Position numbers and translations under genes: made by a program. Shown here in pieces: positions 22,196 to 52,085 of a stretch of 64,000 bases of DNA. This DNA comes from a virus (lineage: Duplodnaviria > Caudoviricetes), in the IMG/VR virus record IMGVR_UViG_3300014968_000001, positions 8,496 to 72,495 of that record; one strand, written 5' to 3'. Each line of letters begins with the position of its first letter. The stretch's first letter is position 1. The notes under the pieces were generated by a model, which ran no database searches, was not told the origin of the DNA, and saw only the letters and a list, made by a program, of their open reading frames with translations.

Positions 22196-23116
22196 TTATG
22201 GGCAAGATAGCCCGAAATGGGAAAGATACCATTCAAAACTGCGAACGAAAATCGACTGGTTATAGGCCCGTTCGGAAAGCAGGGTGTTCCATTCCGCGTT
22301 GACCTGGCGTTTTGACAGCGTCAAATCCTCGGAATTTTGCAGCGTGGCGATGAGGGCGGCAGCGCGTTCCCGAGGTAAACAGGTGTGGGCGAGCGCGAGC
22401 TTATTGAAAGTAACCTTCCACTGGTCAGTCTTATACGTCGTGGACTGACGAAACTGATGCCCGATCCTTACGGTTTTCAGCATCCGAATATCCCCACCCG
22501 CCAGCCACCATTTGAGCGACAAAAACGGCTCGTCCAAACCCCACCCCTTCAAAAGCTTCAACCCGCCAACGTGAAAATAAAAGTCAGTCGGCATGACGTA
22601 ACCAGCGCCCATGATGCAGGACAACGGGTAATCATCTTCGCCAGGCCGTTCCTTCGCCCATTTGCCTTCGAGCGTCTGCATCCTGCCGCCGTCGTTTTGG
22701 TCAGGGCCGTAAAAGTGAATGTAAGCCCCGTGATAATCGCCGCGCGCCTGAGACATGTCCATCATCCCCGGAACGAGTTGAACGCACAGCAGGTTATGCA
22801 GGGTCGTTGGTCGGTCTTTGATGCGATCCATCAAGGTTTCGTACCAGCCGTTTTCAAAGCGTACATGGCTGTCGGTGAGCAGAAGAAAATCTCCCGTGGC
22901 GCGCAATGCACCAATGTGCCGAGAGGCGGCGACCCCGGCCCTTTCATCATTGCGGATAAGATGGCACTTTTTGTCCTCCAAAGAGAGCGGGACTTGGCTC
23001 GCATCATCTATGACAATTACCTCCGGTTTGTCGCCAGCGGTGTCGCGGATGCTTTTGATGGTGGCTTGGCATTCCAAATAGTCGTTGAGGCAGGGTATGA
23101 TGATGCTGAGTCTCAT
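22196..23116 (-). CDS. GT-A glycosyltransferase resembling the polypeptide GalNAc-transferase catalytic domain
   Basis: SIIIP, VIVIDDAS, GVAASRHIGA..ATGDFLLLTDSH (DxH), GWGLDEPFLSLKWWLAGG, IGHQFR. Confidence 0.85.
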   Translation of the reverse strand: MRLSIIIPCLNDYLECQATIKSIRDTAGDKPEVIVIDDASQVPLSLEDKKCHLIRNDERAGVAASRHIGALRATGDFLLLTDSHVRFENGWYETLMDRIKDRPTTLHNLLCVQLVPGMMDMSQARGDYHGAYIHFYGPDQNDGGRMQTLEGKWAKERPGEDDYPLSCIMGAGYVMPTDFYFHVGGLKLLKGWGLDEPFLSLKWWLAGGDIRMLKTVRIGHQFRQSTTYKTDQWKVTFNKLALAHTCLPRERAAALIATLQNSEDLTLSKRQVNAEWNTLLSERAYNQSIFVRSFEWYLSHFGLSCP

Positions 23117-23421
23117 TTAATTTCTCCGTTGGTAATGAATCCGTGCCATTCGTTGTATTTTGAGAAATCAAGCGAGGGAGTCAATGTGAGAGTTTCAAAT
23201 GTGTCACCAGTGCGTTGCCAACGGTGCATCCCACCATAAAGTTCTGGATTGTCCGCAGGGTCGGATAACCAGCCAAGATTGAGAGGGTCAATCGGGTTTT
23301 TGAAAAGGCATCCAAGATGCTGTCCGGTGCCCAACGGCGACAGGAACGAAACCCCAACAACAAGTTTATTCCACGGCTGGCCATAGCCAAGCCACGAAGG
23401 TTCAAGGTAGGTCAGTCTCAC
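23113..23421 (-). CDS. DUF6527-like small protein
   Basis: C-terminal W.RTGDTFETLTLTPSL...WHGFITNGEI. Confidence 0.55.
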   Translation of the reverse strand: MRLTYLEPSWLGYGQPWNKLVVGVSFLSPLGTGQHLGCLFKNPIDPLNLGWLSDPADNPELYGGMHRWQRTGDTFETLTLTPSLDFSKYNEWHGFITNGEIK

Positions 23422-24935
23422 AACGGTAATGGTGTATACCCACTCTCCCCCGGTTTGCCAACATTCATTCCTTCGGTCGGTCGAATCAGTTCATCGACGC
23501 ATTCGCTGGAAACCAAGTAGCTCGCGGCGTCGTAAACGTGCTTTAGCGGGCTAAGTTTATTAATGGCAATGTTGCCCTTCCCCTTTTTGATGCCCTGAAA
23601 GGATTCAATGAGATGGGGGCATTTCGAGCGTGAGATGAAGATGCGATTCTCGAAGAACAGACGTTTCAACAGGTCAACCCGTTGGCCGACCGACCCAGGG
23701 CCTTTGTTGACGGCGGTGAGTATAATCTTGCCGCCGCTTTCCTGACGGATGAACTCATGCGGCAGGATGGCCGACATGCTGCCTTGAACATCGAACACAT
23801 TTCGGTCAGACCAATTCCGCCACATTAACGGATGGCCGCAGTGTTCCTCCCAAAACTCGATTTTCTCAAGCACCTCAGCGACGAAATCTGAAAACAGAAT
23901 CTTTTCCCCGACATAAACCACTTCATCCAGGAATTTGAAAATACTGATGGGTTTGGCGGAGCGTTCAATCGTGATCTTCTCAGCGATGACCATTGCATGA
24001 TTTACGTCGCCGGGGTCCCAGCCCGTTATCAGTTCGGAACAATTTTCTTCGGGGATGAGGCAGTCTGGTTCGGGATTGGAACGGGTTTCCGGGTCGCCGA
24101 CGATATGCACGTTGGGACGAAACTGTTCGTGGAACACGGAATTTCCGGATGCCTTCACCCATTTACCGTAATAATAGCGAGCCAACAAATCTTCGGAATG
24201 TTCGTACTTGGCTTTTTGGGACAGGTGCCACGATTCATCTTTGAAAATGTTGTCCGATACGTTGAACTCCATCAACGCAAGGCATTCGGCGAACATCGCC
24301 ATGCCCTTGTTATCGCCCCAGTCCAGAACTCGGTCTTCATACCACAGCTTCCAAATCCACGAATCTGTGCCTTCCTCGGACGGATTAGTGTCGCCAATGA
24401 AGATGTGCTGCCATTCCTGCCATTGACCGCGTAGACATTCCCGCCAGCAATCGAAGGTTGCGCGGCTTTTGTAATTGGACAATTCGGACACGTAAATGCC
24501 ACTATACGACTTACCTTTGAACCGTTCCTCGACATCATCCTCGTGCTTGAGGGAATCCAGGTGAACGCGCGACATCGTGCCGTATTTGTTTTTTACCTCA
24601 CAATACAGCTTCTTGGTCGTGCCCTTCTGGCGCGGCGTGGTGATCCATTCCATGCCGAAATCGCCCCCGATCCATTCAGGGAGCGTCTTTTCGGTCAGTT
24701 CAGTCCACATACCGGAATCATCGCCGGCGGTGACGGTAGGGCAGACCACGGCGAACCGGGCGTCTTTCACTTCCCACAGGTGTTCGGCGATGGCGGCCAT
24801 GCAACCCGTGGACTTGGTGGACATGCGCGGTCCACTGACGAGGATGTATTTCTTGGGGTTTTCGGGGAAGCGATGGCACAGGCGGAGCAACTCCATCTGC
24901 CTGGGGCTTAATGAGGGATGGAACGGGTCTGACAT
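23418..24935 (-). CDS. terL: Terminase large subunit
   Basis: LSPRQ, SGPRMSTKS (variant Walker A), GIYVSE (variant Walker B), GDTNP, RYYYGKW, nuclease GWDPG and HVYDAASY. Start ATG 24935; the ORF-track extension is antisense to the next gene. Confidence 0.9.
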   Translation of the reverse strand: MSDPFHPSLSPRQMELLRLCHRFPENPKKYILVSGPRMSTKSTGCMAAIAEHLWEVKDARFAVVCPTVTAGDDSGMWTELTEKTLPEWIGGDFGMEWITTPRQKGTTKKLYCEVKNKYGTMSRVHLDSLKHEDDVEERFKGKSYSGIYVSELSNYKSRATFDCWRECLRGQWQEWQHIFIGDTNPSEEGTDSWIWKLWYEDRVLDWGDNKGMAMFAECLALMEFNVSDNIFKDESWHLSQKAKYEHSEDLLARYYYGKWVKASGNSVFHEQFRPNVHIVGDPETRSNPEPDCLIPEENCSELITGWDPGDVNHAMVIAEKITIERSAKPISIFKFLDEVVYVGEKILFSDFVAEVLEKIEFWEEHCGHPLMWRNWSDRNVFDVQGSMSAILPHEFIRQESGGKIILTAVNKGPGSVGQRVDLLKRLFFENRIFISRSKCPHLIESFQGIKKGKGNIAINKLSPLKHVYDAASYLVSSECVDELIRPTEGMNVGKPGESGYTPLPL

Positions 24936-25035
24936 TTTGTTCTTGCCAGTACTACCTAAAAGTCTTAGATGATGCAATAACAGAGTCACCAAACAATCCA
25001 AGGCGACTCGAACAATGTTTGAAAAGGCTAACTTT

Positions 25036-25383
25036 ATGGCAAACAAACCGTACCAACCGATGAACGATCCCGCCGATGGTGAAACCGACGCCCCCGATAG
25101 CGGCGAATCCCCGGCACAAGTGACGCTGGACAAGAGCAACCCTGACATTGCCGAGGCGTTCGCCGAGTGCAAGGAAGGCGACATGTACAAGGTCGTCAAG
25201 GATGACGAGAACGAGATTGTTTTGGAGAAACAGCCGGACATGGCGGCAGGCGGCGAGGAAGAAAACGCCGGGGAAAACATGAACGAAGGCGGTCAGGAGG
25301 AATCCGGCGGCGAGGATGATGGCAGTTTCAAATCCGACAAGCCGGGGATTGCGCTGTTGATCGCCAAGAAGCGGAAGCAGTAA
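25036..25383 (+). CDS. Acidic hypothetical protein with basic C-terminus
   Basis: D/E-rich, 115 aa, ends AKKRKQ. Confidence 0.7.
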   Translation: MANKPYQPMNDPADGETDAPDSGESPAQVTLDKSNPDIAEAFAECKEGDMYKVVKDDENEIVLEKQPDMAAGGEEENAGENMNEGGQEESGGEDDGSFKSDKPGIALLIAKKRKQ

Positions 25384-25388
25384 TTTTG

Positions 25389-25467: not shown

Positions 25468-25484
25468 TTTATAGAAAACTTAAA

Positions 25485-25658: not shown

Positions 25659-25659
25659 A

Positions 25660-30215: not shown

Positions 30216-32150
30216 ATGGCGAATACGACGAATAACAATCTGCTCCTGGCACCGAACGCATTCTCGAAGTGCGCCCCGAACCTTTCCACCAACATCAAGC
30301 AATGCGGCACGGTGACGTTGTGCAACGCCATCCCCATGACGCCTGCCGACCTGAGTACCGCGTTCACGTCCGGCGGCAATTATCGCGTGATGTCGTCCCT
30401 GCTGAAGCACGACATGGAAATCAAGATGTGCTCGGCCAAGCAGAATGGCCTGTACGACTTCCTGATGGCCAACAAGGTGTCGATGGGCCACAAAATCCGC
30501 ACGGAGAAAATCAATTCCGGCCTTATCCGCATCGCCCCCTACGTTCTCGCCCGTCAGTACACGAACATCAACAACGAATACTGGCAGGTATCCAACGGCG
30601 CGACCAACGGCGCCTACTGGCAGGTCGATGTTACCAGCCCGACTGGGATTCCGGCCAATGAACGCTCTTTCGGTCCCGGCAATCGCGTGTTCATCGACGG
30701 TGTGACCGGCGGCGGCACGGCTACCCACACGGAATGGCTGATTATTTCCTCGACTGTCACCGGCAACACGGTGGTCCTGATTTTGCAGGCGGCGCAAGCC
30801 GGTTCCTACCTGGCGGCTTCCAGTTTGACCAGCCCGACGGTCGGCATTATGACCCGCGGCACGGCGAACGTAAACGATTACGAGAAGTATTGCGATGAGC
30901 CGGCGGCTTACCTGAACTGGAACAACGTTCCGTTCTGGACGGAAACGATGCGAACCACGGTTTGCACGTCCGAACAATATCAGCTCTGGCGCAAGCTTCT
31001 GCTGGCCGACAACCCGCTCTACGCTGAATACGGCGACCTCGACGAGATCGAGAAGAACCGCCAGTTGGGTGCCGATTGGCAGAAGCGCATGGTGGCTCAG
31101 ATGTTCTGGGGTAAGGCGACCAATGCCAACCAGACCCTCGCGCTCTATCCGAACCTGCCGCAAATCGAAACCTATCCGGGTGGAAATTTCGACGTTGGCG
31201 GCGCGCAATGCGTCGGTGTTCGCGCCGACATGATCGGGCTTTACGAGCAGATGGCGCAATGCGGTCGGATCGTTGACCTGCAAGGCGCGGCGCTGAACCT
31301 GATTTCCCTGTTCAATGCGCTCTATCAGATGATGCGCGTGCGGGAAGGTTCCACGGGTCAAAACGTTAAGTCGTTCGATTTGTTCACGGACAATCAGACC
31401 GCCGAAGCCATCAATTACGCGATGGTGACGCAGTATTACCAGAGCAAGAGCAACAACCAGTTGCGCTTGAACTACGACGTGAACGCCAGCGGGAATGCTC
31501 CGCAATCGGCCAATTTCGGGTTCAACTTCCGGTCTTACAACCTGTTCTACCCGAACGTGCGTATCAATGTCGTGACGCATTATTACTTTGACGATTACGT
31601 GACCGCGCAGGCGGCAGTCGGAAACAACAACGGACGCTTCCTGTGGTGCCTGGATTTCACGGGCATCTATCCCGGCATCATGGCGACCAACCGCAAGGTG
31701 CTGAACACGGGCGACCTCAAGACGCTCGCGGCGATTGATTCCTCATGGGGCTGCGTCATGGAAGTGTTCACCAAACAGACCACGGCGACGAGTGTTACCG
31801 GGACGATGGTGGTGGAATGTCCGGCGGCGAACCTGATGATCGAAAACTTCCCGTTGACCGGCATCATCGGCAGCAATGTGTCGCCGAACCCGACCACGCC
31901 GCCCGTGTATCCGCCGTCGGCGACCAGCACGACCACGACGACCACCTTGGGCACGTTGTATTACAATACGCTTCAATCGTTCACGGCGACGTGTCCGGTG
32001 GGTTACGAGGGTGCTCCGGTGACTGTGAGCAGCGCGGCGAATTCGTTTGTGTCGAGCATCTCGCAGGCGGACGCCAATGCGAAAGCGTTGAGCGCGGCGA
32101 CCTTGGCAGCGCAACAGCAATTGGTCTGCACGCCAATCAATAATCCGTAA
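30216..32150 (+). CDS. Major capsid protein with C-terminal Thr-rich linker and DUF5977-like domain
   Basis: Follows portal and scaffold; spine-helix-like EKNRQLGADWQKRMVAQMFWG; terminator follows; extension after PNPTTPPVYPPSATSTTTTTT. Confidence 0.8.
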   Translation: MANTTNNNLLLAPNAFSKCAPNLSTNIKQCGTVTLCNAIPMTPADLSTAFTSGGNYRVMSSLLKHDMEIKMCSAKQNGLYDFLMANKVSMGHKIRTEKINSGLIRIAPYVLARQYTNINNEYWQVSNGATNGAYWQVDVTSPTGIPANERSFGPGNRVFIDGVTGGGTATHTEWLIISSTVTGNTVVLILQAAQAGSYLAASSLTSPTVGIMTRGTANVNDYEKYCDEPAAYLNWNNVPFWTETMRTTVCTSEQYQLWRKLLLADNPLYAEYGDLDEIEKNRQLGADWQKRMVAQMFWGKATNANQTLALYPNLPQIETYPGGNFDVGGAQCVGVRADMIGLYEQMAQCGRIVDLQGAALNLISLFNALYQMMRVREGSTGQNVKSFDLFTDNQTAEAINYAMVTQYYQSKSNNQLRLNYDVNASGNAPQSANFGFNFRSYNLFYPNVRINVVTHYYFDDYVTAQAAVGNNNGRFLWCLDFTGIYPGIMATNRKVLNTGDLKTLAAIDSSWGCVMEVFTKQTTATSVTGTMVVECPAANLMIENFPLTGIIGSNVSPNPTTPPVYPPSATSTTTTTTLGTLYYNTLQSFTATCPVGYEGAPVTVSSAANSFVSSISQADANAKALSAATLAAQQQLVCTPINNP

Positions 32151-37431: not shown

Positions 37432-37440
37432 GTCCGCACT

Positions 37441-38074: not shown

Positions 38075-38367
38075 AATCACCATTCAAAGTTCCGCCGTTT
38101 GACCGCAAGCCGCCTGTTGATCCGGTTCATTATTACTGGTGGTCGTGGCATCCCAATTACCCACGCTGGTCACAATCGTGTTGGGGCGGAAAGACTAAAG
38201 CTGAAGCGTTGAAGGCGTTAAAAAAACCAACGGCTTCCAGTTTGAGTGTTTATCACAACAAATTAATTCGGCACGGTGACGGGAAATACACCGAAGTTGC
38301 GGATGTTCCGTGTAAAGAAATGGATGTTTGGGAAAGAATTTACGCACAGCGAAAAGCCAACTCATGA
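38071..38367 (+). CDS. Hypothetical protein
   Basis: 98-aa coupled ORF. Confidence 0.6.
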   Translation: MKSPFKVPPFDRKPPVDPVHYYWWSWHPNYPRWSQSCWGGKTKAEALKALKKPTASSLSVYHNKLIRHGDGKYTEVADVPCKEMDVWERIYAQRKANS

Positions 38368-41715: not shown

Positions 41716-41924
41716 AATCAAAAAAGCACATTGACCGTAAAACCAAGATTGAGCATACACTAACCGAGGCCAGAAAGATTTGTGACAACAATAACGAGGT
41801 GCGGCAGTGTTGGTTTAGGCTAATGAGAGAGCTTGAGTTTATGGCTGACGCCGAAGCACCTATGCCGCGATTCAATCAATTGCTACACGCAATCTGGATT
41901 GCCGCAACTGACGACCAGTCCTAG
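41712..41924 (+). CDS. Small hypothetical protein
   Basis: 70-aa coupled ORF. Confidence 0.55.
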   Translation: MKSKKHIDRKTKIEHTLTEARKICDNNNEVRQCWFRLMRELEFMADAEAPMPRFNQLLHAIWIAATDDQS

Positions 41925-41934
41925 TCATTCATGA

Positions 41935-42114
41935 ATGAAACTCCTATGGAACCCATGCCCAATCTGCGGAGCGAAGTGCGATGTGCAAAGTCTCAAGTTG
42001 CCGAAAGGCAGGATGATCGTCGCCATTTGCTCGAAATTCGGTTGTCGGGATGTCAGTGCGAAAACGAGGCGGGATGCGAATAAACTTTGGAACGAACCTT
42101 TGAAGTGGTTATGA
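41935..42114 (+). CDS. Lar-like zinc-ribbon protein (59 aa, not in ORF track)
   Basis: MKLLWNPCPICGAKC...ICSKFGC...TRRDANKLWN matches the Lar pattern PCPxCG..C..C..A...WN. Confidence 0.6.
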   Translation: MKLLWNPCPICGAKCDVQSLKLPKGRMIVAICSKFGCRDVSAKTRRDANKLWNEPLKWL

Positions 42115-42218
42115 AATAAAAAAATGAAACGAGCCACGGCATATATGTCAAATAGCGGTCTGTGCAACCTGCCGTCGAGTCCTCTGGCACAGCAGAAGGA
42201 TTCACGCTCAAAACAATT

Positions 42219-42596
42219 ATGAAAACTGTCATCGAAACCATCCCGCACAAAAATCAGCGGTACGAAACTTGCGGAGATTACTTCACCGATCCCGACGGCA
42301 CAACCCAAGTGCGCGTATCTGACATGGGCAACGAGGATTACGCCTTTCTGGTGAGCATCCATGAACAGATTGAGGAATATCTGACGCGGAAGCGCGGCAT
42401 CGATGAGACGGACATCAAAGTGTTCGATGAATTGTTCGAGAAGAACCGTCAACCAGGTAACGACGATGAGCCCGGTGACCAGCTGGAAGCGCCATATCAC
42501 AAGGAGCATGTTTTCGCCGAATGCTTGGAACGGCTGCTGGCGCGGGAACTCGGCGTGGATTGGGCGGAGTATGGGAAAGCGGTGATGGCGTTATGA
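42219..42596 (+). CDS. Conserved phage protein with HExxE / HxxA metal-site-like motifs
   Basis: QRYETCGDY, VSIHEQIEEYL, EPGD..APYHKEHVFAE. Confidence 0.7.
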   Translation: MKTVIETIPHKNQRYETCGDYFTDPDGTTQVRVSDMGNEDYAFLVSIHEQIEEYLTRKRGIDETDIKVFDELFEKNRQPGNDDEPGDQLEAPYHKEHVFAECLERLLARELGVDWAEYGKAVMAL

Positions 42597-42778
42597 GCAT
42601 CCACATTACTAAAAATAGAATCAGGGCTACGGGCGCGGATGCCAATGCGTTGCTTATCTCAATGGCTCCCGACGAGCAGCTTTTGAAATGGGATAAAGAA
42701 AAGTTTGGCTCTGATGATTTTCAACGAATTGTAAAAGAGGCAATGGCGAAACGCCGCCTTGTTCACCCGCAACAATGA
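42593..42778 (+). CDS. Small hypothetical protein
   Basis: ATGA-coupled, 61 aa. Confidence 0.55.
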   Translation: MSIHITKNRIRATGADANALLISMAPDEQLLKWDKEKFGSDDFQRIVKEAMAKRRLVHPQQ

Positions 42779-45075
42779 CAACTCTCACCTGTATCTGCGT
42801 CAGCTACGCCCGCCCCGCCTGCGTCAATGAGGCAGTCCAACTGTTCCTCAACCAATCGTTTGCGAGGCCAAAGGAGTTGATTCTGCTGAACACATTCCCA
42901 AAGCAGCAATTCAAATTTGACCATCCGAACGTGGTGGTCGTGAATCTGCCCGAACGCCCGAAGTCTCTGGGCGAAGCTCGGAACATGGCGATTACTTTGG
43001 CGACGGAAGATTCGCTGATAATTACGTGGGATGACGATGATTTTTTCACGTCGTGGCATCTGGCAAATTACGCCGAGAACTTGGAACCGGATTGCGATTG
43101 GTATTGGCTCTCCGCCGAATATTATAGCGAGAATCGACGCATCAAATCCGTGGCGATGGGCACACCTAACCTGTTCGCTTTTACCAAGCGCGCATGGAAA
43201 TCCGTTGGGGGCTACCCTGCGTTGACAGTTGGGGAAGACCGGGCACTTATGGGCAAAATTTCCCCCAAATTCAAAGGCAAAAAAATCACGCTAGCGACCA
43301 ACCGAATTTCTTTTATACGTGGGTGGGGCTGCGACGAGCTTTATCACACGTCGGGCCTTGGCGATGACCGCACTGGACGACAATCGTCCCATGAACGAGT
43401 GGCGGAACATGCTGAGGACTTGATTCGGCGCGGATTGCTGGCGACCGGCGAAATTCAAATCGTGCCCAAAGCCAACGCGGATTACGACAAACTCGCCTTG
43501 GACTTCTCGGGCGCCATCTGCCGTGTGCAAGACCAGAAATGGGGCAAAGTCTGCGTGTTGGAGTTGGGCCGATACGGTGACATTCTCAACATCCTGCCGG
43601 TGTGCAAATACATCGCGGAGCATTACGAGAAGCCGTTGCTGGCTGTGTCCAAGGAGTTCGCCTCGCTGTTGGATGGCGTGTCTTACGTGACGCCGTTGCC
43701 GCTGGATTTGCCTTACGACAAGGTGAACCAGGCGATGACCATTTGCCGGCAGAAGGCAGAAATGGTGATTTGCGCTCAAGTCTATGGGGAATCCTATAAT
43801 CCCGAAAAGCTGCGCCCCTGTTATTCGTGGGATTCATGGCAGCAATCGGGTTTCGGTGAACTGTACATGGATAAGTGGACGCATCCGCTGGTGATTGACC
43901 GGCGGGATCGGTTGCGCGAGGACAATTTTACTCGGTCAAAGCTGTCGTCGAAACCGACGATTTTGCTGAACATTAGCCGCGGCATTTCTTCGCCTTACAC
44001 TGACCACGCAAAGTTCACGGAATTGTTGCGGACGAATTGGAGCGAGAAATATCACATCTTGGACATCGGCCAAGCAAACGCGCAGCAGATTTACGACCTG
44101 TTGGGCATGTATGACAAGGCGGCGTTGCTGATAACCAGTGACACAGCCACGCTGCACCTGGCGGCAGCGAGTGACATCCCGGTAATCGCCTTGGTGAATG
44201 ACATTGATTGGCTGGCGACGATCCCGCGTTGCAACTGTGTGTATCGGGTGCGTTATTGCGATGCCGTCCAGAATTTCGCCGTGGTGAACATGACGATTGA
44301 TAGTTTGGCGAAAGTAAAGCGGTGTCCAGTGAGGCCGCCAAAGCCGTTTGTGAAGCCGAAGCGGAGAATTGTTCACGCTGTCGAGTGGCACCCTGAATTA
44401 GCGGACGATCCTCGGAAATCCAAAGCGCGGGAGTCGTGGAAGGCATTGTATGCTCAGGGCGTGATTCAAACACCTTACGCAGTATATAAGAGGAATTCGG
44501 GACAATTGGGTTGTCGGCGCAGCCTTCCGTTCCTCAAAGATGTTCTTGCGCACGGACTGGCAAGTGCAGACGACCCCAACGACATCGTTTTTTGGACTAA
44601 CGATGACAACATCCTGCATCCCCGTCTGCCGCAAGCCTTGGAAATGCACCTGTCCATCTTCGACGCCTGCACGTCTCAACGGCGCGAGTTCTCCAAACCG
44701 TATCCGACAACATCAGTGACCCCCGACGAAGTGGTGGCGATGAGCGAAGACCATTTGGGCAGGGATTTGTTCGCGGCGACCGCTGGCTGGCTTCGGCGGT
44801 ACTGGGACGAAATACCGGACTTCCTGCTTGGCGTGCCCGTGTTCGACCTATGTCTTGCCGCGATGGTGCGGAGCAAGCGCGGGTTTAAGACCGACCGCAA
44901 CAATATCGCCACGAATTATGCGCCGTGCGAATTGCGTTTGGGGTACGTGTCGCATGAGCGGCACCCATCGTTTTGGAATACGTTGCCAGCGAGCGATCCG
45001 GCTACGCAACATAATCACCGCCTGTTCGCCGAATGGGCTAGCAAACACGCCCCCGACATGCGCCTACCCTTATGA
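42775..45075 (+). CDS. Three-domain glycosyltransferase (GT2-like + GT9/heptosyltransferase-like + GT-A-like)
   Basis: SLGEARN..ITWDDDD, VGGYP..GED; ELGRYGDILNILP..LLITSDTATLHLAAA; DIVFWTNDDNIL..GRDLF. Confidence 0.85.
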   Translation: MTTLTCICVSYARPACVNEAVQLFLNQSFARPKELILLNTFPKQQFKFDHPNVVVVNLPERPKSLGEARNMAITLATEDSLIITWDDDDFFTSWHLANYAENLEPDCDWYWLSAEYYSENRRIKSVAMGTPNLFAFTKRAWKSVGGYPALTVGEDRALMGKISPKFKGKKITLATNRISFIRGWGCDELYHTSGLGDDRTGRQSSHERVAEHAEDLIRRGLLATGEIQIVPKANADYDKLALDFSGAICRVQDQKWGKVCVLELGRYGDILNILPVCKYIAEHYEKPLLAVSKEFASLLDGVSYVTPLPLDLPYDKVNQAMTICRQKAEMVICAQVYGESYNPEKLRPCYSWDSWQQSGFGELYMDKWTHPLVIDRRDRLREDNFTRSKLSSKPTILLNISRGISSPYTDHAKFTELLRTNWSEKYHILDIGQANAQQIYDLLGMYDKAALLITSDTATLHLAAASDIPVIALVNDIDWLATIPRCNCVYRVRYCDAVQNFAVVNMTIDSLAKVKRCPVRPPKPFVKPKRRIVHAVEWHPELADDPRKSKARESWKALYAQGVIQTPYAVYKRNSGQLGCRRSLPFLKDVLAHGLASADDPNDIVFWTNDDNILHPRLPQALEMHLSIFDACTSQRREFSKPYPTTSVTPDEVVAMSEDHLGRDLFAATAGWLRRYWDEIPDFLLGVPVFDLCLAAMVRSKRGFKTDRNNIATNYAPCELRLGYVSHERHPSFWNTLPASDPATQHNHRLFAEWASKHAPDMRLPL

Positions 45076-45311
45076 GCAACGTTGAAATAATAATCGTGTC
45101 CTTCTATGTGTTCGGGTATCTCGTAATGCTCGGCATTATTCTGGACTCGGTTGAATCATTTGAGACGTACAAAAAAGACCCAAGGCCGGTTTTAGCCTTT
45201 GCACTCGGTTTAATTTTAGCAATCTTCTGGCCAGTTTGGATTGGCGTTCAAATATCAGACTGGATTCAAAAAATCGACAAGATTATGGATGATAAAATTA
45301 AAAAGCTATGA
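45072..45311 (+). CDS. Small membrane protein
   Basis: Two hydrophobic segments, ..AIFWP. Confidence 0.6.
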   Translation: MSNVEIIIVSFYVFGYLVMLGIILDSVESFETYKKDPRPVLAFALGLILAIFWPVWIGVQISDWIQKIDKIMDDKIKKL

Positions 45312-45967
45312 TTTGCACCATCACAACCAGCCGCCGCCCCAAACTATTCAAACGCACTATCGAGAGCGCCCGCGCGAACATGCGGGATTTCAGTTTCATT
45401 CAAGAGATGGCTATTTTCGACGATGGCAGTCCGCCCGAAGACTTGGACGCGATGAAAGCCGTGGCGCCGCAGTTCGCCACTTGGGAGCATTGCGATGAAC
45501 CGCAGGGGCATGTGGCGAGTTTGAATCGGGCGTTGGAATATCTAAGGCGGTCAGGGCAGGAGTTTGCGTTGATGGCAGAGGACGATTGGCTATTCACGCG
45601 GTTTTCGTGTCCCCTGCTCGCCAGCCTTGATGTGCTGATAAACAATCCGAAGGTGGGCCAGGTCTGCCTTGGTAGAATTGACATGCGCTTTGGCTGGCGC
45701 GGCTTCACCGAGACGGGGACGATGTTCACGATCCGCGACAAACATTTCGGGCCGGACAATTACCCCGCGTTCACTTTGAATCCATCCGTTGTCCGCATCG
45801 AGGCATTGCTGGCAGTGGGCGAGTTCAAGGCGGTAGAAGGCTTCGAGCGGGAGTATGGGGAGCGTTGGCTGGCGGCGGGATGGGACACATCAGATTTATT
45901 TTCGCCTCACTTGGTTCATATTGGCGACGGGCAGAGTGCGTATGATCTTAATGGATTTTTAAGATAG
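45308..45967 (+). CDS. GT2-like glycosyltransferase
   Basis: ITTSRRP, IFDDGS, GHVASLNRA, LMAEDDWLF, FTLNPS, HIG. Confidence 0.8.
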   Translation: MICTITTSRRPKLFKRTIESARANMRDFSFIQEMAIFDDGSPPEDLDAMKAVAPQFATWEHCDEPQGHVASLNRALEYLRRSGQEFALMAEDDWLFTRFSCPLLASLDVLINNPKVGQVCLGRIDMRFGWRGFTETGTMFTIRDKHFGPDNYPAFTLNPSVVRIEALLAVGEFKAVEGFEREYGERWLAAGWDTSDLFSPHLVHIGDGQSAYDLNGFLR

Positions 45968-46037
45968 ACATGAATTTATTTTTTATTATTATTTTGTTGT
46001 TCGGCGTGATACCCGATGAAACAACAAAACCAAATCT

Positions 46038-46100
46038 GCACCCCGTCGCAAAAGACAACGCTTCCTCGGCGTTGTGTATCACCTTTTGCGGCGCGGGTGC
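46038..46100 (+). promoter_or_regulatory. Long hairpin directly upstream of the HNH gene start
   Basis: GCACCC-CGTCGCAAAAG / CTTTTGCGGCG-C-GGGTGC with inner ACAACGC/GCGTTGT; followed by GGAG and ATG. Confidence 0.45.
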
Positions 46101-46113
46101 TTTGGAGATGTAT

Positions 46114-46812
46114 ATGCCAGAGATAAAATCAATTTCGTTTGATGCGCTTCCCAAAAGGAAAGGGAGAACCGACCTTTCCGGCTCTCGGTTCACGAGGTGG
46201 CAGGTTGTGGGCCCTTATGGAATGATAGGCCCAAAATTGCATTGGGTGGTAAAATGTGATTGTGGCAATTTCTCGGTGGTTATGACTTCCAATTTGAATC
46301 AAGGGTTAAGCCGATCCTGTGGATGCCTTCAAAAAGAAACAGCCAGCAAAACCATGCTTGTTCACGGTCAGGGAACTTTCGGTAAAACAAAAACTAGAGA
46401 AAATAGAATTTGGGTTAGTATGATAGCCAGATGCACTAATCCTAACTCCGCAGGCTGGAAAAATTATGGAGGGAGGGGGATTTCTGTTTGCGACAGGTGG
46501 AGGCATTCTTTTCTAGCGTTCTTTGAAGATATGGGAAAATGCGCTGATGGCTATTCGTTGGAACGTCGGGAAAATAATGGTAACTACTGTAAGGAAAATT
46601 GTTATTGGGCGACTCGCAAGCAACAAAATAACAACAAGCGAAGCAATGTGATTTTGCAGCACGAAGGTATTTCGCTAACAATATCTCAATGGAGCGAAAA
46701 AGCTGGAATCAATTATGGCACCTTACGCTCCCGCCTGCGAGACGGATGCAGTGTCGCAGAGGCACTAACTAATCCGGTGGCTCATAAATCCAGCAAGCGG
46801 AAAGATGTGTGA
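46114..46812 (+). CDS. HNH-type homing endonuclease-like protein
   Basis: DLSGSRF, W..KCDCG, SRSCGC, W.SM..RC, YGGRGI.VC.RW, SLERRENNGNY...NCYWAT...NN; visibly AT-richer than flanks. Confidence 0.85.
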   Translation: MPEIKSISFDALPKRKGRTDLSGSRFTRWQVVGPYGMIGPKLHWVVKCDCGNFSVVMTSNLNQGLSRSCGCLQKETASKTMLVHGQGTFGKTKTRENRIWVSMIARCTNPNSAGWKNYGGRGISVCDRWRHSFLAFFEDMGKCADGYSLERRENNGNYCKENCYWATRKQQNNNKRSNVILQHEGISLTISQWSEKAGINYGTLRSRLRDGCSVAEALTNPVAHKSSKRKDV

Positions 46813-46826
46813 CGCGACCATAAATT

Positions 46827-47288
46827 ATGGACGAATTAAAAATACAGTTTGGCGCGGGTGGAAATTTGCTCGAAGGCTGGCGGAACCACGATCTTGAATC
46901 CGATGGTGTGGACATCCGTGAGCCGTTGCCTTACGCGGACGACACCGTGGACTTCATCCTCGCGGAGCATGTTATGGAGCATGTGACCGGGCCGGAAGCG
47001 TTGCGGTTTTTGGATGAGTGCCATCGGATTTTGAAGCCGGGTGGGACGTTGCGCGTTTGTTGCCCGGTATTGGACGAATTGAGCATTTCCGACGCGCGAG
47101 ACATCATCTTGAATCATGGGCATCTTATTTTTCTGTCGAGGGATTCGATGAGCGAACTTTTTCGGGCGAGCAAATTCAGATTCGGAGACTTTGGTGAGAC
47201 TGAAATCGCAGAGTGCGACGGCCACTGGAAAGTCATCGGCCAAGAAAAAGACCACATTGAAACCTGCCGCATCGAGGCAACGAAATGA
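46827..47288 (+). CDS. Class I SAM methyltransferase (Methyltransf_11-like)
   Basis: FGAGGN...W.N.D, LPYADDTVD.I.AEHVMEH, ECHRILKPGG. Confidence 0.85.
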   Translation: MDELKIQFGAGGNLLEGWRNHDLESDGVDIREPLPYADDTVDFILAEHVMEHVTGPEALRFLDECHRILKPGGTLRVCCPVLDELSISDARDIILNHGHLIFLSRDSMSELFRASKFRFGDFGETEIAECDGHWKVIGQEKDHIETCRIEATK

Positions 47289-47842
47289 ACGGCTTCGAGA
47301 TAACCAAAACCGGCATCTGGAAATGCGAGACTGTCGAGCCGCATTATTTTGACGAGCCGTTGGCGGCGGCAATCCACGATTATCTGCCGGCGGGCAATGT
47401 GCTGGACTTGGGGTGCGGGGATGGTCGTTATTCCATCTTTTTCAATCAGCGCGGCAGGATGTCCTTGGGGGTCGATGGCAACCCGCATTTGCAGCCGGAA
47501 GGTGTCACCATCATTCACGCTGATTTGACGCAGCCGTTCCTTGCGCTTTCCGATTTCGTGGTCTGCCTTGAAGTGGGCGAACATATCCCCGCCGAGTTTG
47601 AAAGCGTGTTCCTGGACAACGTGACGCGCAACGCGCGCAAGGGAATCGTTCTTAGCTGGTTTCCGCGTGATGGCGAGGGCATCGGACATGTGAATCCACG
47701 ATCAAACGAATGGGTCAATGCGGAGATGTTGAGGCGCGGGTGGGTACGACTTGATTTGCCTACGGCAACCCTACGAAATGAATCCACGCTTCATTGGTTC
47801 AAGGAATCGCTGGCGGTTTATTTTAAGGCTCCAAATGAGTAA
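47285..47842 (+). CDS. Class I SAM methyltransferase
   Basis: VLDLGCGDG, GVDG, DLT, CLEVGEHI, GHVN. Confidence 0.85.
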   Translation: MNGFEITKTGIWKCETVEPHYFDEPLAAAIHDYLPAGNVLDLGCGDGRYSIFFNQRGRMSLGVDGNPHLQPEGVTIIHADLTQPFLALSDFVVCLEVGEHIPAEFESVFLDNVTRNARKGIVLSWFPRDGEGIGHVNPRSNEWVNAEMLRRGWVRLDLPTATLRNESTLHWFKESLAVYFKAPNE

Positions 47843-48500
47843 TCATCGTTACACGATTGGCACTGGGTTTGTTTCCGGAAAAGACGAGGGATTTTCTTTT
47901 CAAATTTGGATGGCCAATAGTTTGAAGTTTTCCAAGCCAGAAAAGGTAATTGTTTTGGCGGTTGGAGGAAGGCCAAATTTTAATATTTTAGGAGATGATC
48001 CAATGATTGCTTGGGTTGAAGGCAACCTCGGCCACATCGGCGACCTGCTGGATAAGCGCAAGCCTCACAAGTTTTGCGGTTGGTCAATGGGTATGATGAC
48101 GCTGGCATTGCTGGCCTATCAGAACGAGACGGACTTTATTTACAAGGAACAGGATTGTCTCGCGTTCGGTCCCTGGGTGGAGCGCCTCTACGCTGAGTGC
48201 GGCGATAAGAAGGTGTGCTTCGGAAAGAACGGGCTGATGACCTGCGCTCAAAGTCTGTTTCTTGTGAAGCATGATTTCATCCCGGAATTCGTTCGCAGCT
48301 ATTTGGGCACTGGGCCGGACGCAGCGACAATGCCGGAAACCAAATTCTCGAACATGGCTAAGGTGAATCAGCCGAATTGGACGCAGTTTGGGTTTGGGGT
48401 GGATCGTGACCGGCCAATTCCTTGGGATGATGAAGTTTGGTATGCGCAACATTTTACTCAGAAAGAACTCGCAGAATTAACCCGCAGAAATCTCATATGA
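47835..48500 (+). CDS. Putative GT-A fold glycosyltransferase
   Basis: FIYKEQDCLAFG (ExD variant of DxD); cluster context. Confidence 0.5.
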   Translation: MSNHRYTIGTGFVSGKDEGFSFQIWMANSLKFSKPEKVIVLAVGGRPNFNILGDDPMIAWVEGNLGHIGDLLDKRKPHKFCGWSMGMMTLALLAYQNETDFIYKEQDCLAFGPWVERLYAECGDKKVCFGKNGLMTCAQSLFLVKHDFIPEFVRSYLGTGPDAATMPETKFSNMAKVNQPNWTQFGFGVDRDRPIPWDDEVWYAQHFTQKELAELTRRNLI

Positions 48501-49297
48501 AATTGCACTTCATCACCCTCGCGCTGGACGCCCAACCTTACATCGCGCATCACATCAATCAATTCAATCAACTGCCTTTCGACTGGGACTGGTCAATTAC
48601 AGAAGGCGTGGCGAAGCCGTTCAAAGATACGGGATGGTGTAAGGACATTCCCGCACGGTTGTCGAATGATGGAACACACAACTATTTGAGAGAGCTTTCG
48701 AGCTATCACCCAAAAGTCGCCTTCCATTGGCGAGACGAATGGCCCGGGAAAACCGCCATGCTCAATTACGCCCTGCAATTCCTGAAAGGCGACGGTTTGC
48801 TCATGCAGATCGACGCGGATGAACTGTGGACAACGGAACAACTGGTCAAAATCTATCAGATGTTTAAGCACAGCCCGAGGTTTCAATGGGCGGAGTTTTA
48901 TTGCCGGTATCTGTTAGGTGCGAATGTCGAGGCCATCACGCCCGGATGTTACGGGAATAATCCCGGCGAGTGGAAAAGGGTTTGGCGCTGGCGTGAAGGG
49001 CAGATGTTTGACCGCCACGAACCTCCAATTTTGGAAGACATCAATTATCAGACGATGCCTGGATTCGACCGTGACTGCACGAAGCAGTTTGGACTGGTAT
49101 TCTGGCATCCAGCATATGCGCTGGAAAAAACTTTGGCCTTCAAGGGAGCTTACTACGGCTATACCGATGCTTTGGCGCAATGGAAGCGCCTTCAAAAAGA
49201 CGCAGCCGATCCCGCCGTGAAGTTTCCCCGGCCTGTTTCGGAATATTTGAAATGGGTCACAGACGGCGCGATGTGTGATCGGGTGGTGAATATATGA
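48497..49297 (+). CDS. GT2-like glycosyltransferase
   Basis: W.ITEGVA, SNDGT..YL, KT.MLN, LMQIDADELW, FWH. Confidence 0.75.
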   Translation: MKLHFITLALDAQPYIAHHINQFNQLPFDWDWSITEGVAKPFKDTGWCKDIPARLSNDGTHNYLRELSSYHPKVAFHWRDEWPGKTAMLNYALQFLKGDGLLMQIDADELWTTEQLVKIYQMFKHSPRFQWAEFYCRYLLGANVEAITPGCYGNNPGEWKRVWRWREGQMFDRHEPPILEDINYQTMPGFDRDCTKQFGLVFWHPAYALEKTLAFKGAYYGYTDALAQWKRLQKDAADPAVKFPRPVSEYLKWVTDGAMCDRVVNI

Positions 49298-49476
49298 CAA
49301 CCCTCGAACAAAAATCCCTCACCGAAACCATGCGCCTAATCGCGTGCGCAAAAATGGACATAGTATCCGGCCAGAACATCACCGATGCAAAGCGCAGAAG
49401 GAAGGTTTTGGAGGATGGGAATGGGAAGCTTACTCAGGCGTATTCTTGGCTTGAAGCTTTGAAAGGGGAGAAATGA
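49294..49476 (+). CDS. Small hypothetical protein
   Basis: 60-aa coupled ORF. Confidence 0.5.
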   Translation: MTTLEQKSLTETMRLIACAKMDIVSGQNITDAKRRRKVLEDGNGKLTQAYSWLEALKGEK

Positions 49477-49709
49477 AAGAACCTAAAGAGCCGATATTTC
49501 ATCTATTAGTGCCAAAGCAGTTTCGCACATGGTGTATTGCCTCTAAGCCTCCAAGTGCAGCGATGAATACGACAATCCTTGTATCGAAGTGCAATTGTGT
49601 GAACTGCCTTACAAAATACCGCCGCTCCATTGGGAGGCCCACACAGTTTAGAAAGAAGTGGACTAACCGCGCCGAATGGCGAGAACAAACACCAGAATTG
49701 GAGGAATGA
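49473..49709 (+). CDS. Small hypothetical protein
   Basis: 78 aa, WC...CNCVNC. Confidence 0.5.
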   Translation: MKEPKEPIFHLLVPKQFRTWCIASKPPSAAMNTTILVSKCNCVNCLTKYRRSIGRPTQFRKKWTNRAEWREQTPELEE

Positions 49710-49960
49710 TGACTAAAGGACTCATGGGCAGAATCGGCAAAGGGTCGCACGGCTGGACAAGCCGCGATTACAATATTGATGTGCCATGTAAACGCATCAC
49801 TTGCCCCGCCAACTCTGGCGTAAAGATGCCTTCAAGTTCATGCCTTATCTGCATGATGCCGTCTGCGATTAAGATTGGCGCAAACGGTATTTGTGAGACA
49901 GGGCAGAAGCTTATTGACGAGCAGCCGCCTGAAAAACCAAAGAAACCGGACGGAGACTGA
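49706..49960 (+). CDS. Small Cys-rich hypothetical protein
   Basis: ATGA-coupled; C..ITCPAN..C.IC...C. Confidence 0.5.
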   Translation: MMTKGLMGRIGKGSHGWTSRDYNIDVPCKRITCPANSGVKMPSSSCLICMMPSAIKIGANGICETGQKLIDEQPPEKPKKPDGD

Positions 49961-50013
49961 CCTATGACCTCAAACCCCGAAACATCAGTGTGTGCTAATT
50001 GAAGGATACCGTT

Positions 50014-50388
50014 ATGCCAAAACCCGGATGCCAGCAATCGAAATATCTCTCGCAAATCGAACCAACCGAGCAACAGATTGAGCGGTTTAAAACTCGCATC
50101 ACGAAACCAGACGGTGAATCGGGATGCCATATTTTCAGAGGCTCTTATGCTGGCCGCAAGGACATGAAATACGGGGTGTTCACTGTCCAGCATTTCCTTA
50201 TTCGCGCCCACCGATTTGCTTATTGTGCTTTCAGGGGGAAGATTAAGGGCGGTCTTTTTGTTCTTCATACTTGCGACACGCCAATGTGCGTAAATCCATC
50301 GCATTTATTTCTTGGAACGGCGGCTGAAAACACAGCAGATATGTGCCGAAAAGGAAGAAGCACAAAAGGAAAAAGGAGGAAGCCATGA
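50014..50388 (+). CDS. HNH (His-Me finger) endonuclease
   Basis: GCHIF.G...YG...RAHRFAY..VLHTCDTPMCVNPSHLFLGT..EN..DM. Confidence 0.85.
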   Translation: MPKPGCQQSKYLSQIEPTEQQIERFKTRITKPDGESGCHIFRGSYAGRKDMKYGVFTVQHFLIRAHRFAYCAFRGKIKGGLFVLHTCDTPMCVNPSHLFLGTAAENTADMCRKGRSTKGKRRKP

Positions 50389-50645
50389 GCGACCAGAGTA
50401 AGGGCGAAGATTTTCCGTCAAGCGTTATGGACTTGCATCAAGCGCGCTCTGTAATCGCTTCTCTATCACAGAAACTCGCCATAAAAGACCAACAACTCCA
50501 ATCCCTAACGCGAAAGTTGGAAACGGCTAGGGAGGCTTTGAAACAAATAGAGCTGGGCTGTCCATCCAGCAATCCAGAAGTAATACACAAAAGAGCAACA
50601 ATGCTTGCAACCAAAGCTCTCCGCGAGCTAGACGGAAAGGAATGA
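50385..50645 (+). CDS. Small coiled-coil protein
   Basis: Heptad-rich, ..AREALKQI..A.KAL. Confidence 0.6.
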   Translation: MSDQSKGEDFPSSVMDLHQARSVIASLSQKLAIKDQQLQSLTRKLETAREALKQIELGCPSSNPEVIHKRATMLATKALRELDGKE

Positions 50646-50648
50646 TTT

Positions 50649-50780
50649 ATGGATGGAATTGACATAATTTTAGTTTGTTGCGGTCTAATGGCGATGATTT
50701 TAGTTGTCGCCATAAACCAAGCCAAAAACGAAATCCTCGCCGCCATAAACCAAACCAAAAAGAAAGACTCTGACGAATGA
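50649..50780 (+). CDS. 43-aa membrane peptide (not in ORF track)
   Basis: MDGIDIILVCCGLMAMILVVAINQAKNEILAAINQ...; coupled to the next ATG. Confidence 0.5.
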   Translation: MDGIDIILVCCGLMAMILVVAINQAKNEILAAINQTKKKDSDE

Positions 50781-51151
50781 AACCAGAACAAATGCATAGG
50801 GCAATAGCATCTCATTGCGGCTGGAAAGATGTAACCTTGGTTACTGGTAAAGAAGATTGGTTTTGGATGTTCGGAACATTCAAGGACGAATGGATAGGTA
50901 AATTAGTTGGATGGAAAGACAGCGACTGCGCCGAAGAGATTCCCAACTATCCCGAATGCCTCAACGCCATGCACGAGGCGGAAAAATCTTTGAGTGACGA
51001 CCAATTGGTGAGTTACAGGCTAAGATTGTGCGACAATTCAGACGGGCCGAATGCACGCTACAGAACCGTCGAGGCGGCTATGTGTCACGCAACAGCAGAT
51101 GAGCGCGCGGAGTCATTCGTCCACACGATTAAGAAATGGAGCGACGAATGA
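50777..51151 (+). CDS. Hypothetical phage protein
   Basis: AIA.HCGW...PNY..CLNAMHEAE...ATA.ERAESF. Confidence 0.65.
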   Translation: MKPEQMHRAIASHCGWKDVTLVTGKEDWFWMFGTFKDEWIGKLVGWKDSDCAEEIPNYPECLNAMHEAEKSLSDDQLVSYRLRLCDNSDGPNARYRTVEAAMCHATADERAESFVHTIKKWSDE

Positions 51152-51215
51152 CTCTGATTTTCCTTCTCCTACTCGCGTGTGCGCCGTTGGGGGTGATGGC
51201 CGCTCAAAATGTTTT

Positions 51216-51563
51216 ATGAATATTACCACATATCAACTCCACATCCTGAGACATTCGCTTGGTCTGGACGATAACGGTCACGGCAATCAATACCGCAATT
51301 ACTTTTGCTCTGGAAAGGATTGCGACGGGTTTGATGATTTGCTTGCGCTTTGTCGAATGAAACTTATGCGACCCCTAGGACATCAAGGGGCGAACGAATA
51401 TTTTGCCGTCACGGATGAAGGAATAAAAGCCGCGCTGAAAGACGTTGTTTATCCGAAGCTAACGCGCTCGCAGATTCGCTATCAAAGATTCCTAAATGCA
51501 GACCTTGGAATATCATTTGGAGAGTTTCTAAAAACCTACGACCGATTAAAACCCACCCACTGA
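51216..51563 (+). CDS. Hypothetical phage protein (winged-helix-like)
   Basis: HILRHSLGL...YRNYF...F.VT.EG; start moved to ATG 51216. Confidence 0.6.
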   Translation: MNITTYQLHILRHSLGLDDNGHGNQYRNYFCSGKDCDGFDDLLALCRMKLMRPLGHQGANEYFAVTDEGIKAALKDVVYPKLTRSQIRYQRFLNADLGISFGEFLKTYDRLKPTH

Positions 51564-51572
51564 CACCAAAGG

Positions 51573-52085
51573 ATGATGAAAACTAAATTTCCATTTCCAA
51601 CCGTCGAAGGACTTTTGAGCGAGAAGGACAAAGAGGCGTTGCGATCCTTGTCGGCGAAGTGCCGTCATCTTCCGGGGGTGTACGTCGAGATTGGCAGTTT
51701 CAAAGGGTTGAGTGCGTTGTGCATTTCCGAAGGGTTTGACCGGGTGCGGACTCTTTTCTGCTACGACTTCTTTGAACCGGAAAAAATGTCGGAGTTCATC
51801 CAAAACACGGACGATGGCGAAATCGTCGTGGCTCCGGTCGAGGGAGATTTTAAAAAGACGTTCGCGCTGTCCACCGTCTGCTTTGCGTTCGTGGATCATT
51901 CTCACACGTTGGAGGATACGAAGGCAGCTTGGGAACTGCTTTGGCCGCGCATAGTGAAAGGCGGGTTGCTGGTGTTTCACGATTACCGGCATCCGATGTA
52001 TTTGCCAGCGTCGGAGTTTCTGGATTCGTTGCCGGAGGAAAGCACGGCGCCGGAAGGAACGGGTTTGGTTTATTTTAAAAAATGA
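51573..52085 (+). CDS. Class I SAM methyltransferase (Methyltransf_24-like)
   Basis: VEIGSFKGLS, FAFVDHSH, IVKGGLLVFHDY. Confidence 0.8.
   Translation: MMKTKFPFPTVEGLLSEKDKEALRSLSAKCRHLPGVYVEIGSFKGLSALCISEGFDRVRTLFCYDFFEPEKMSEFIQNTDDGEIVVAPVEGDFKKTFALSTVCFAFVDHSHTLEDTKAAWELLWPRIVKGGLLVFHDYRHPMYLPASEFLDSLPEESTAPEGTGLVYFKK

Follow-up and report, generated by a model that had tools for sequence, protein, structure and literature searches.

Does this soil phage encode its own pathway for the glycosylation of its virion and, if so, which virion proteins would carry the sugars? The question is raised by a 64-kb stretch of DNA (in the following the window), comprising bases 8496-72495 of the 72,495-bp IMG/VR virus record G000:C1, in which a cluster of glycosyltransferase (GT) and methyltransferase (MT) genes spans positions 38364-52085 and a further GT gene, resembling those of the polypeptide GalNAc-transferases (GalNAc-Ts), adjoins a structural gene elsewhere. 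We consider it probable, judging from gene content and from the comparison with related phages, that a late-expressed cytoplasmic pathway O-glycosylates the phage's own virion proteins. The source record has direct terminal repeats and is rated complete in IMG/VR, and the phage DNA is present almost fully in one rhizosphere metagenome and partly in soil metagenomes (5 DNA runs, and no RNA run). When TerL was compared with 50,697 GenBank phage records no relative was found, and in a tblastn search of the same records the GalNAc-T-like protein had only two weak GT2 matches, both N-terminal and in contigs of faecal origin; the phage group is thus uncultured. The gene map is based on six-frame open reading frames (ORFs), Pfam and PHROGs. 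On the minus strand a virion structural protein of 618 amino acids (aa), the 306-aa GalNAc-T-like GT, a small DUF6527 protein and TerL are encoded, and the plus strand encodes, from 26067 onward, a portal-sized, a scaffold-like, a 644-aa capsid, a 199-aa, a 568-aa adaptor-like and a 941-aa adhesin-like protein (Table 1).

Eukaryotic GalNAc-Ts (CAZy family GT27) start mucin-type O-glycosylation, and the initial annotation had proposed that the 306-aa protein is an initiator of this kind. The resemblance was confirmed by matches in the PDB and by three aligned motif sites. The protein matches Pfam GT2 with 63.9 bits, and in a search of PDB sequences the top 16 matches were GalNAc-Ts (T1, T2, T4, T7, T9, T10 and T12; E 2e-13 to 6e-7), except for one chain named only 'Glycosyl transferase', the first ordinary GT2 following only at E 0.06. 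D82-S-H84, W192-G-L-D-E196 and G219-H220-Q-F-R align with the DSH (DxH), WGGEN and GHVFR motifs of GalNAc-T2, and D82, H84, W192, G193, E196 and H220 are invariant across 27 diverse members of the GT27-like family. Bacterial NCBIfam families cover only the first 100 residues of the protein, and the NCBIfam search gave no match above any cut-off. The enzyme is best classed as specifically GalNAc-T-like rather than as a generic GT2, and as a non-canonical member of its family. It shares with GalNAc-Ts the GT-A domain, the DxH motif, a WGGEN-like loop and the His of GHxFR, i.e., the catalytic domain and motifs of CAZy GT27, and its putative acceptors would likewise be Thr/Pro-rich runs. In difference to them it is soluble and presumably cytoplasmic, with a maximal 19-residue hydropathy of 0.91, and has neither a ricin-type lectin domain nor a type-II membrane anchor nor a secretory pathway: the sequence ends with the catalytic domain, and Ricin_B gave no Pfam match in it.

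Capsid-based searches of IMG/VR yielded 22 related loci, and 12 related records, whole or nearly so, were compared gene by gene. GT27-like and three-domain GT genes occur together in nine lineages (G001, G003, G006, G008, G009, G010, G013, G014 and G016), where the GT27-like protein is 33-52%, the three-domain enzyme 36-40% and the capsid protein 47-59% identical to those of the window; a homologue of the GT2-like enzyme at 48497 is found in most of them, and MTs as well as the conserved 221-aa protein recur within the clusters. In G003 the adhesin gene and the gene of a 611-aa structural protein flank the entire GT/MT cluster, which comprises the GT27-like gene and is encoded on one strand. 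The homologue of the 618-aa gene directly adjoins the GT27-like gene in 10 related records and without exception among the relatives that have the latter, and the position of this gene pair next to TerL in the present phage results from a rearrangement. The conserved order among structural genes in the relatives shows that the cluster is ancient and has been conserved within the virion gene block.

The capsid protein of the phage ends in a Pro/Thr-rich linker followed by a DUF5977 module, and the PSATSTTTTTT linker described in the initial annotation was located within this tail. A Thr run following a conserved Y-P is present in the capsids of 11 GT-bearing records, which represent nine lineages besides this phage (e.g., T7-A-P-Q, T5-E-P-A, T-S-T6-Y-H and T7-P-T-T-P-Q), and among ORFs of at least 150 aa hardly any other Thr run, or none, occurs in each genome. 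The capsid protein itself has no match among PDB sequences. Its AlphaFold model, with a mean predicted local distance difference test score (pLDDT) of 61, was compared with the PDB by Foldseek, and the top 11 matches were all phage capsids (E 2e-8 to 1e-3, probability 0.97-1.00, template modelling score (TM-score) 0.2-0.37), led by VP1 and phicrAss001 and including P1.

The enzymes and the Thr tail were also found to be absent together. The relative G012 (66 kb, estimated to be 88% complete) has all structural genes, but no GT2 match was obtained anywhere in this record, whereas three relatives searched alike have three or four each. Where the cluster would be expected by synteny, only a 224-aa ORF separates the adhesin gene of G012 from that of a 615-aa structural protein. 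No Thr run occurs in the ORFs of G012, and its capsid ends in ..T-Y-L-P-Q, at the point where the Thr run of the others starts. In the midpoint-rooted capsid tree G012 is nested among the GT-bearing lineages and is not an outgroup, so that its state looks like a joint loss of the GT cluster and the Thr tail. No capsid branch in this tree is longer than that of G012 (0.67).

A second candidate acceptor is DUF5977. The seven DUF5977-like modules counted in the initial annotation are all present, one in the capsid, four in the adaptor and two in the adhesin (Pfam and our own profile hidden Markov model, HMM), the PF19404 scores being 42, 131.7 and 26.4 bits, respectively, at a gathering cut-off of 25. 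It had been suggested that this module is reused as the acceptor and that the GT cluster would co-occur with capsids bearing it. Neither idea was borne out. Most relatives that keep the enzymes have a capsid without the module, the occurrence of which on the capsid is limited to this phage, G004, L019 and L021, and the adaptors of several GT27-like lineages are without DUF5977 as well, although adaptor homologues as such are present in all relatives. The Thr run, on the other hand, is kept in all nine lineages, and this conserved run, set against a mostly absent capsid module, makes the poly-Thr tract, and not DUF5977 as such, the likely acceptor. The capsid DUF5977 module itself is best read as a recent add-on. 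In G012 (34289-43888) there are no DUF5977 modules, and the C-terminal domains of its adaptor (833 aa) and adhesin (1294 aa) are of other types. The reading that DUF5977 is unrelated to the enzymes was rejected, since G012, which is without GTs, has no DUF5977 modules either.

It is quite unlikely, in our estimate, that the enzymes modify another protein, be it the DUF5977 modules, the 618-aa structural neighbour or proteins of the host, with the Thr tail serving only as a spacer. Such a target would agree with the constant adjacency of the GT27-like and 618-aa genes, with the joint absence of DUF5977 and GTs in G012, and with locus L052, in which the enzyme and DUF5977 modules occur without a Thr run. 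However, the 618-aa protein has no Ser/Thr-rich stretch, the adaptor homologues of L044, L054, L057 and L058 are without DUF5977 despite the GT27-like enzyme, L051 and L056 have extreme Thr tracts in place of DUF5977, and GalNAc-T-type enzymes are generally known to use extended Thr/Pro-rich peptides.

The association between GT27-like genes and poly-Thr proteins extends beyond the phages compared above. With a GT27-like profile 26 IMG/VR loci with full-length matches were collected, and two sets of phage loci that match only the generic GT2 N-terminus (n=69 loci) served as controls. Within 10 kb of the GT27-like gene Thr-dominated runs occur in 26 of 504 ORFs of at least 150 aa, compared with 6 of 972 in the controls, which is an enrichment of about 8-fold per ORF; counted by locus, a Thr-run ORF lies within this distance in 16/26 GT27-like and 5/69 control loci (Fisher p 1e-7). 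When the enzymes were collapsed at 60% identity, 11 of 13 lineages had a Thr-run protein on the contig. The 618-aa neighbour is common to most of the 26 loci, which thus come from one broad phage group; L051 and L056 stand outside it. L051 (IMGVR_UViG_3300044821_000131) is a 204-kb, jumbo-sized and apparently unrelated contig, in which a 428-aa protein with an FN3-like N-terminus is encoded directly upstream of the GT27-like gene (L051:8414-9700); it contains 78 Thr in runs of 22, 8 and 48, written with all four Thr codons, and has a globular domain at its C-terminus. In a protein of L056 Thr, Ser and Pro make up a tract of about 100 residues, and in L054 and L057 the DUF5977 region of the adaptor homologue is replaced by other domains on T7 and S-T5 linkers (T7 and T5 in L054). 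As the Thr codons are mixed throughout (ACC and ACG in the capsid run of the present phage), the Thr runs are kept at the protein level and are not products of DNA slippage.

An exhaustive search with the GT27-like profile gave 966 clusters at 50% identity (E<=1e-30). In two of them (P0138 and P0141) a domain resembling the first domain of the three-domain enzyme (32% identity, E 1e-36) is fused to a GT27-like domain, in P0127 this arrangement occurs twice over, and P0125 and P0126 consist of tandem GT27-like domains; these five metagenomic proteins reach lengths of up to 1258 aa. Natural fusions of this kind argue for a common substrate of the initiator and the first elongating domain. In 185,579 prokaryote species genomes no close homologue of the GT27-like protein was detected (best 24-26% identity), which gives no clue to the host, and it thus seems that the clade is in essence a viral one. 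We see an even chance that this large, nearly phage-confined clade of soluble GalNAc-T-like enzymes performs cytoplasmic mucin-type O-glycosylation of poly-Thr on capsid, adaptor and fibre proteins.

The three-domain GT is a core conserved enzyme of the cluster, with full-length homologues of 36-40% identity in 8 relatives. Its N-terminal domain is a GT-A domain by Pfam and by structure (6p61, Z 19.5, root-mean-square deviation (rmsd) 2.3 over 177 residues). The middle domain is GT9-like, PF01075 being matched by 6 of 9 homologues (best E 3.8e-6); the protein of the window itself reaches 18.5 bits with PF01075, under the cut-off of 22, and 18.7 bits with RfaQ. For the C-terminal GT-A domain, residues 1-762 of the model were aligned with two enzymes that carry two GT-A domains, heparosan synthase 2 and K4CP (Z 17.4 and 14.8, respectively, over about 370 residues, with an rmsd of 14-16 across both domains), and the motif T608-N-D-D611 (TNDD) is invariant in this domain.

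The heptosyltransferase-like middle domain (GT9, RfaQ) would also fit a cluster that remodels a glycan of the host envelope (lipopolysaccharide core, O-antigen, capsule or exopolysaccharide) from within the cytoplasm during infection, e.g., for a block of superinfection or for release, and in which the Thr tail plays no part. GT2 and GT9 enzymes that work on lipid-linked acceptors often have no transmembrane (TM) helices, and the Joint Genome Institute (JGI) label of the homologues reads 'glycosyltransferase involved in cell wall biosynthesis'. We nevertheless regard this as unlikely. The initiator resembles peptide-acting GalNAc-Ts and not lipid-acting GT2s, the cluster lies within the virion gene block and co-varies with virion Thr tracts, and cellular species genomes hold no close homologue of the enzyme. 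Of the components of GtrABC-type or Wzx-Wzy export, no flippase, polymerase (Wzy) or GtrA-like protein was matched by Pfam among the cluster proteins, in which hydropathy likewise revealed no membrane protein: no 19-residue Kyte-Doolittle window reaches 1.9 in the GTs, the MTs or any other protein of the cluster. Here the initial annotation, which had noted the lack of TM helices, flippase, GtrA and Wzy, was right.

The number of GTs had been overestimated. Of about nine GT domains in six genes, as first counted, five are firm, i.e., the GT27-like protein, the three domains just described and the GT2-like enzyme at 48497. The latter is a second core enzyme with homologues in 7 relatives; its Pfam score lies at the threshold, and D106, D108 and E109 (D-x-D-E) are invariant. 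The GT2_286 profile gave at best E 0.1 in the PDB. Two domains are weak. For the protein of about 500 aa at 38364 two domains had been proposed, and one GT-like stretch is indicated by PHROGs and by language-model neighbours in GT2 and Glyco_transf_7C clusters (score 0.94), while the second domain found no support; the protein has no Pfam or PDB match. The other weak case is the small protein at 45308. Both genes are lineage-specific: a homologue of the first occurs only in the closest relative, and one of the second in no relative compared. The 221-aa protein at 47835, also counted as a GT before, gave no match in Pfam, PDB (profile search) or NCBIfam; its homologues (37-41% identity) adjoin the GT2 gene in G003, G006, G008 and G009.

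All four MTs that depend on S-adenosylmethionine (SAM) in the initial annotation were recovered by Pfam. Homologues of the Methyltransf_24-type protein lie within the GT clusters of G003, G008 and G009, and those of the MT at 46827 within the clusters of G008 and G009. The latter protein (153 aa) covers only the second half of the Methyltransf_11 profile, and since the homologues in G008 and G009 are equally short, it represents a conserved short form and not a gene cut by the neighbouring HNH insertion. Two HNH homing endonuclease genes, not mentioned before, are located within the cluster; partial homologues occur at other places in G008 and G009, which suggests mobile insertions and not genes of the pathway. 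The ATP-grasp ligase is upheld as a fold and questioned as a member of the pathway. No sequence match was obtained in Pfam or PDB, and the ESM Atlas model shows TM-scores of 0.76-0.84 to GARS_A families (GAR synthetases) and 0.91-0.92 to phage 'biotin carboxylase family' clusters. As the homologues in G009 and G010 are located away from the GT cluster, this gene may not belong to the pathway, and its membership is doubtful.

Phage GTs can also act on DNA, as in T4 or in pathways that combine a C5 methyltransferase (C5-MT) with 5mYOX enzymes. A C5-cytosine methylase-like gene is indeed present in the replication block (genome 2981-3919, minus strand, outside the window; L128); it matches Pfam with 25.7 bits in its N-terminal part only and adjoins genes for DnaB-like and SNF2-type helicases. 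Phage GT-A enzymes are known to glycosylate 5-hydroxymethylcytosine (5hmC; bioRxiv 10.1101/2023.12.21.572611). However, the complete genome contains no match to a Tet/JBP dioxygenase (PF12851) or to a thymidylate-synthase-type hydroxymethylase (PF00303), a distance of about 43 kb separates the methylase-like gene from the cluster, in contrast to the tight clustering of known DNA pathways, and the GTs are located among structural genes. It is therefore very improbable that the GTs hypermodify the bases of the phage DNA with sugars.

The pathway that we infer would run as follows. The soluble GT27-like enzyme would transfer the first sugar, presumably of the hexosamine type and from a host UDP-sugar, to Thr residues of the C-terminal Pro/Thr linker of the capsid, and in related phages to poly-Thr linkers of adaptor or fibre proteins. 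The three-domain GT and the small GT2-like enzymes may then lengthen the glycan, and the TylF-type and Methyltransf_24-type MTs may cap or decorate it by methylation of its sugars. If such a glycan is made, the outcome would be a mucin-like coat, and in this phage also a stiff, protease-resistant stalk that carries DUF5977 on every capsid subunit. The general proposal of the initial annotation, virion glycosylation by a ppGalNAc-T-like initiator with elongating and decorating enzymes, thus gains comparative support from synteny, from the co-variation with the capsid Thr tail, from the enrichment and from the fusions, while DUF5977 becomes the less likely acceptor and a role for the ATP-grasp protein becomes doubtful.

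Several observations weigh against virion glycosylation. Phage and host are uncultured, and the pathway is a prediction from sequence. GTs without TM helices may still reach lipid-linked glycans of the host from the inner side of the membrane. Cluster and Thr tail were lost together only once, in G012, and as this relative is without DUF5977 too, the event cannot separate the two candidate acceptors. The model of the capsid is of low confidence, which makes the exposure of its C-terminus uncertain. As most GT27-like loci come from one phage group, the enrichment is partly phylogenetic. The capsid tail of L052, which has the enzyme, reads only Y-T-P-T. Finally, a reverse scan for nine ACN codons in a row, in which the reading frame was not checked, gave 80 loci, and a close GT27-like gene was found in 0 of 40 records with such a stretch; Thr runs thus do not need a GT27-like enzyme.

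Some long Thr runs stand beside other GT2 genes. A 1208-aa protein with T15 and T11 (L350:5696-9322) is paired with a GT2 gene that is not close to the GT27-like clade, and in G055 (L170, L247-L250) six (ACN)9 stretches are paired with GT2 genes outside this clade, so that poly-Thr glycosylation may use other enzymes as well.

Table 1. Positions of the genes and domains discussed in the text (numbering of the window)
Feature	Position	Strand	Basis
Soluble GT27-like (polypeptide GalNAc-transferase-like) GT, 306 aa, proposed peptide O-GT initiator	22196-23116	-	Pfam, PDB matches, motifs
618-aa virion structural protein, immediate neighbour of GT27-like gene	20336-22192	-	phrog_3287 E 1e-21
Major capsid protein, 644 aa, HK97 fold	30216-32150	+	After portal and scaffold genes; Foldseek
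Pro/Thr-rich linker S-P-N-P-T-T-P-P-V-Y-P-P-S-A-T-S-T6, proposed O-glycan acceptor	31881-31946	+	Sequence
DUF5977 module at capsid C-terminus, after Thr linker	31959-32129	+	PF19404 E 1.5e-10; own HMM 89 bits
Adaptor-like structural protein, four DUF5977 modules (residues 305-553)	32884-34590	+	Pfam E 1.5e-38; own HMM
Adhesin-like structural protein: Big_2, VWA, two DUF5977 (residues 645-762), P-domain-like end	34560-37385	+	Pfam; own HMM
Three-domain GT (GT-A, GT9-like, GT-A), 766 aa, core conserved cluster enzyme	42775-45075	+	Pfam, models, homologues
GT2-like GT, core conserved enzyme, adjoins GT27-like gene in relatives	48497-49297	+	Pfam GT2, 24.4 bits
Small GT2-like protein (weak)	45308-45967	+	Pfam GT2 20.8 bits, cut-off 23.3
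~500-aa protein, one GT-A-like stretch, accessory	38364-39869	+	phrog_14945 glycosyltransferase E 2e-10, residues 95-215
Conserved 221-aa protein	47835-48500	+	Homologues in relatives, no family
TylF-type (sugar O-) MT	39866-40393	+	Pfam TylF E 6.6e-14; Methyltransf_24
Two adjacent class-I SAM MT genes	46827-47288, 47285-47842	+	Pfam Methyltransf_11, _23, _25
Methyltransf_24 (O-MT-type) protein	51573-52085	+	Pfam E 2e-15
ATP-grasp protein, GAR-synthetase-like fold, T4 Y16D-like phage family	40390-41715	+	ESM Atlas model
HNH homing endonuclease	45970-46812		phrog_374, E 1e-61
HNH homing endonuclease	49999-50388		Pfam HNH_3
Small DUF6527 protein, between GT27-like gene and TerL	23113-23421	-	
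2889-aa protein	7894-16563		No family match

Among the remaining features, the small DUF6527 protein has a counterpart in no relative. The 2889-aa protein shares 30% identity over its C-terminal 1800 residues with the end of a 4210-aa protein from G003, and may be a giant protein carried in the virion, e.g., an RNA polymerase. A scan of 36500-53500 for promoters and terminators gave sites no more frequently than in shuffled sequences.

To our knowledge, phage virion glycosylation has been demonstrated only in mycobacteriophages. In the literature we found no case outside this group, nor any account of GalNAc-T-like enzymes of phages that occur together with poly-Thr proteins of the virion. In mycobacteriophages such as Che8 phage GTs reportedly O-glycosylate the virion, and the capsid subunits are said to be modified at C-terminal extensions and to form a glycan shield. 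The present system would resemble this type in its phage-encoded cytoplasmic GTs, with MTs nearby, that target the phage's own capsid subunits. In difference to it, the GTs are not homologous, the GT27-like protein having no relative among the GenBank phages; a mucin-like run of Thr is the candidate acceptor, a three-domain GT forms part of a larger cluster, and the phages form a soil group with a capsid fold nearest to those of phicrAss001 and VP1. Secreted cellulases and modular glycoside hydrolases have O-glycosylated Pro/Thr linkers, the glycans of which stiffen them and protect them from proteases. In the capsid protein of the present phage a small displayed domain is likewise joined to the body by a Thr/Pro-rich linker; those enzymes, however, are secreted cellular proteins modified by host machinery and not virion proteins modified by viral enzymes. 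For chlorovirus PBCV-1, capsid glycosylation by A064R and its partners is treated in two reviews (PMC9614988, PMC5408694). In this virus, multi-domain GTs and sugar MTs of its own build a methylated capsid glycan in the cytoplasm from host nucleotide sugars, and the proposed pathway of the present phage would resemble it in the action of such enzymes on a capsid protein. PBCV-1, however, is a eukaryotic virus with a double-jelly-roll capsid, to which its glycans are attached by N-linkage at atypical sites.

If the proposed pathway is real, virion glycosylation would extend to an unrelated soil phage group, and would there combine a eukaryote-like enzyme family with a simple, recognisable acceptor, the Thr run, so that a sequence rule would be at hand to predict glycosylated virions in metagenomes. 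It would also provide a compact and soluble mucin-type O-glycosylation system, possibly expressible in E. coli, and would bear on the origin of GT27 enzymes and on the effects of glycan coats on phage stability, adhesion and recognition by the host or by the immune system. Many uncultured tailed phages would then wear a self-made 'mucin' coat, made by a type of enzyme so far regarded as eukaryotic.

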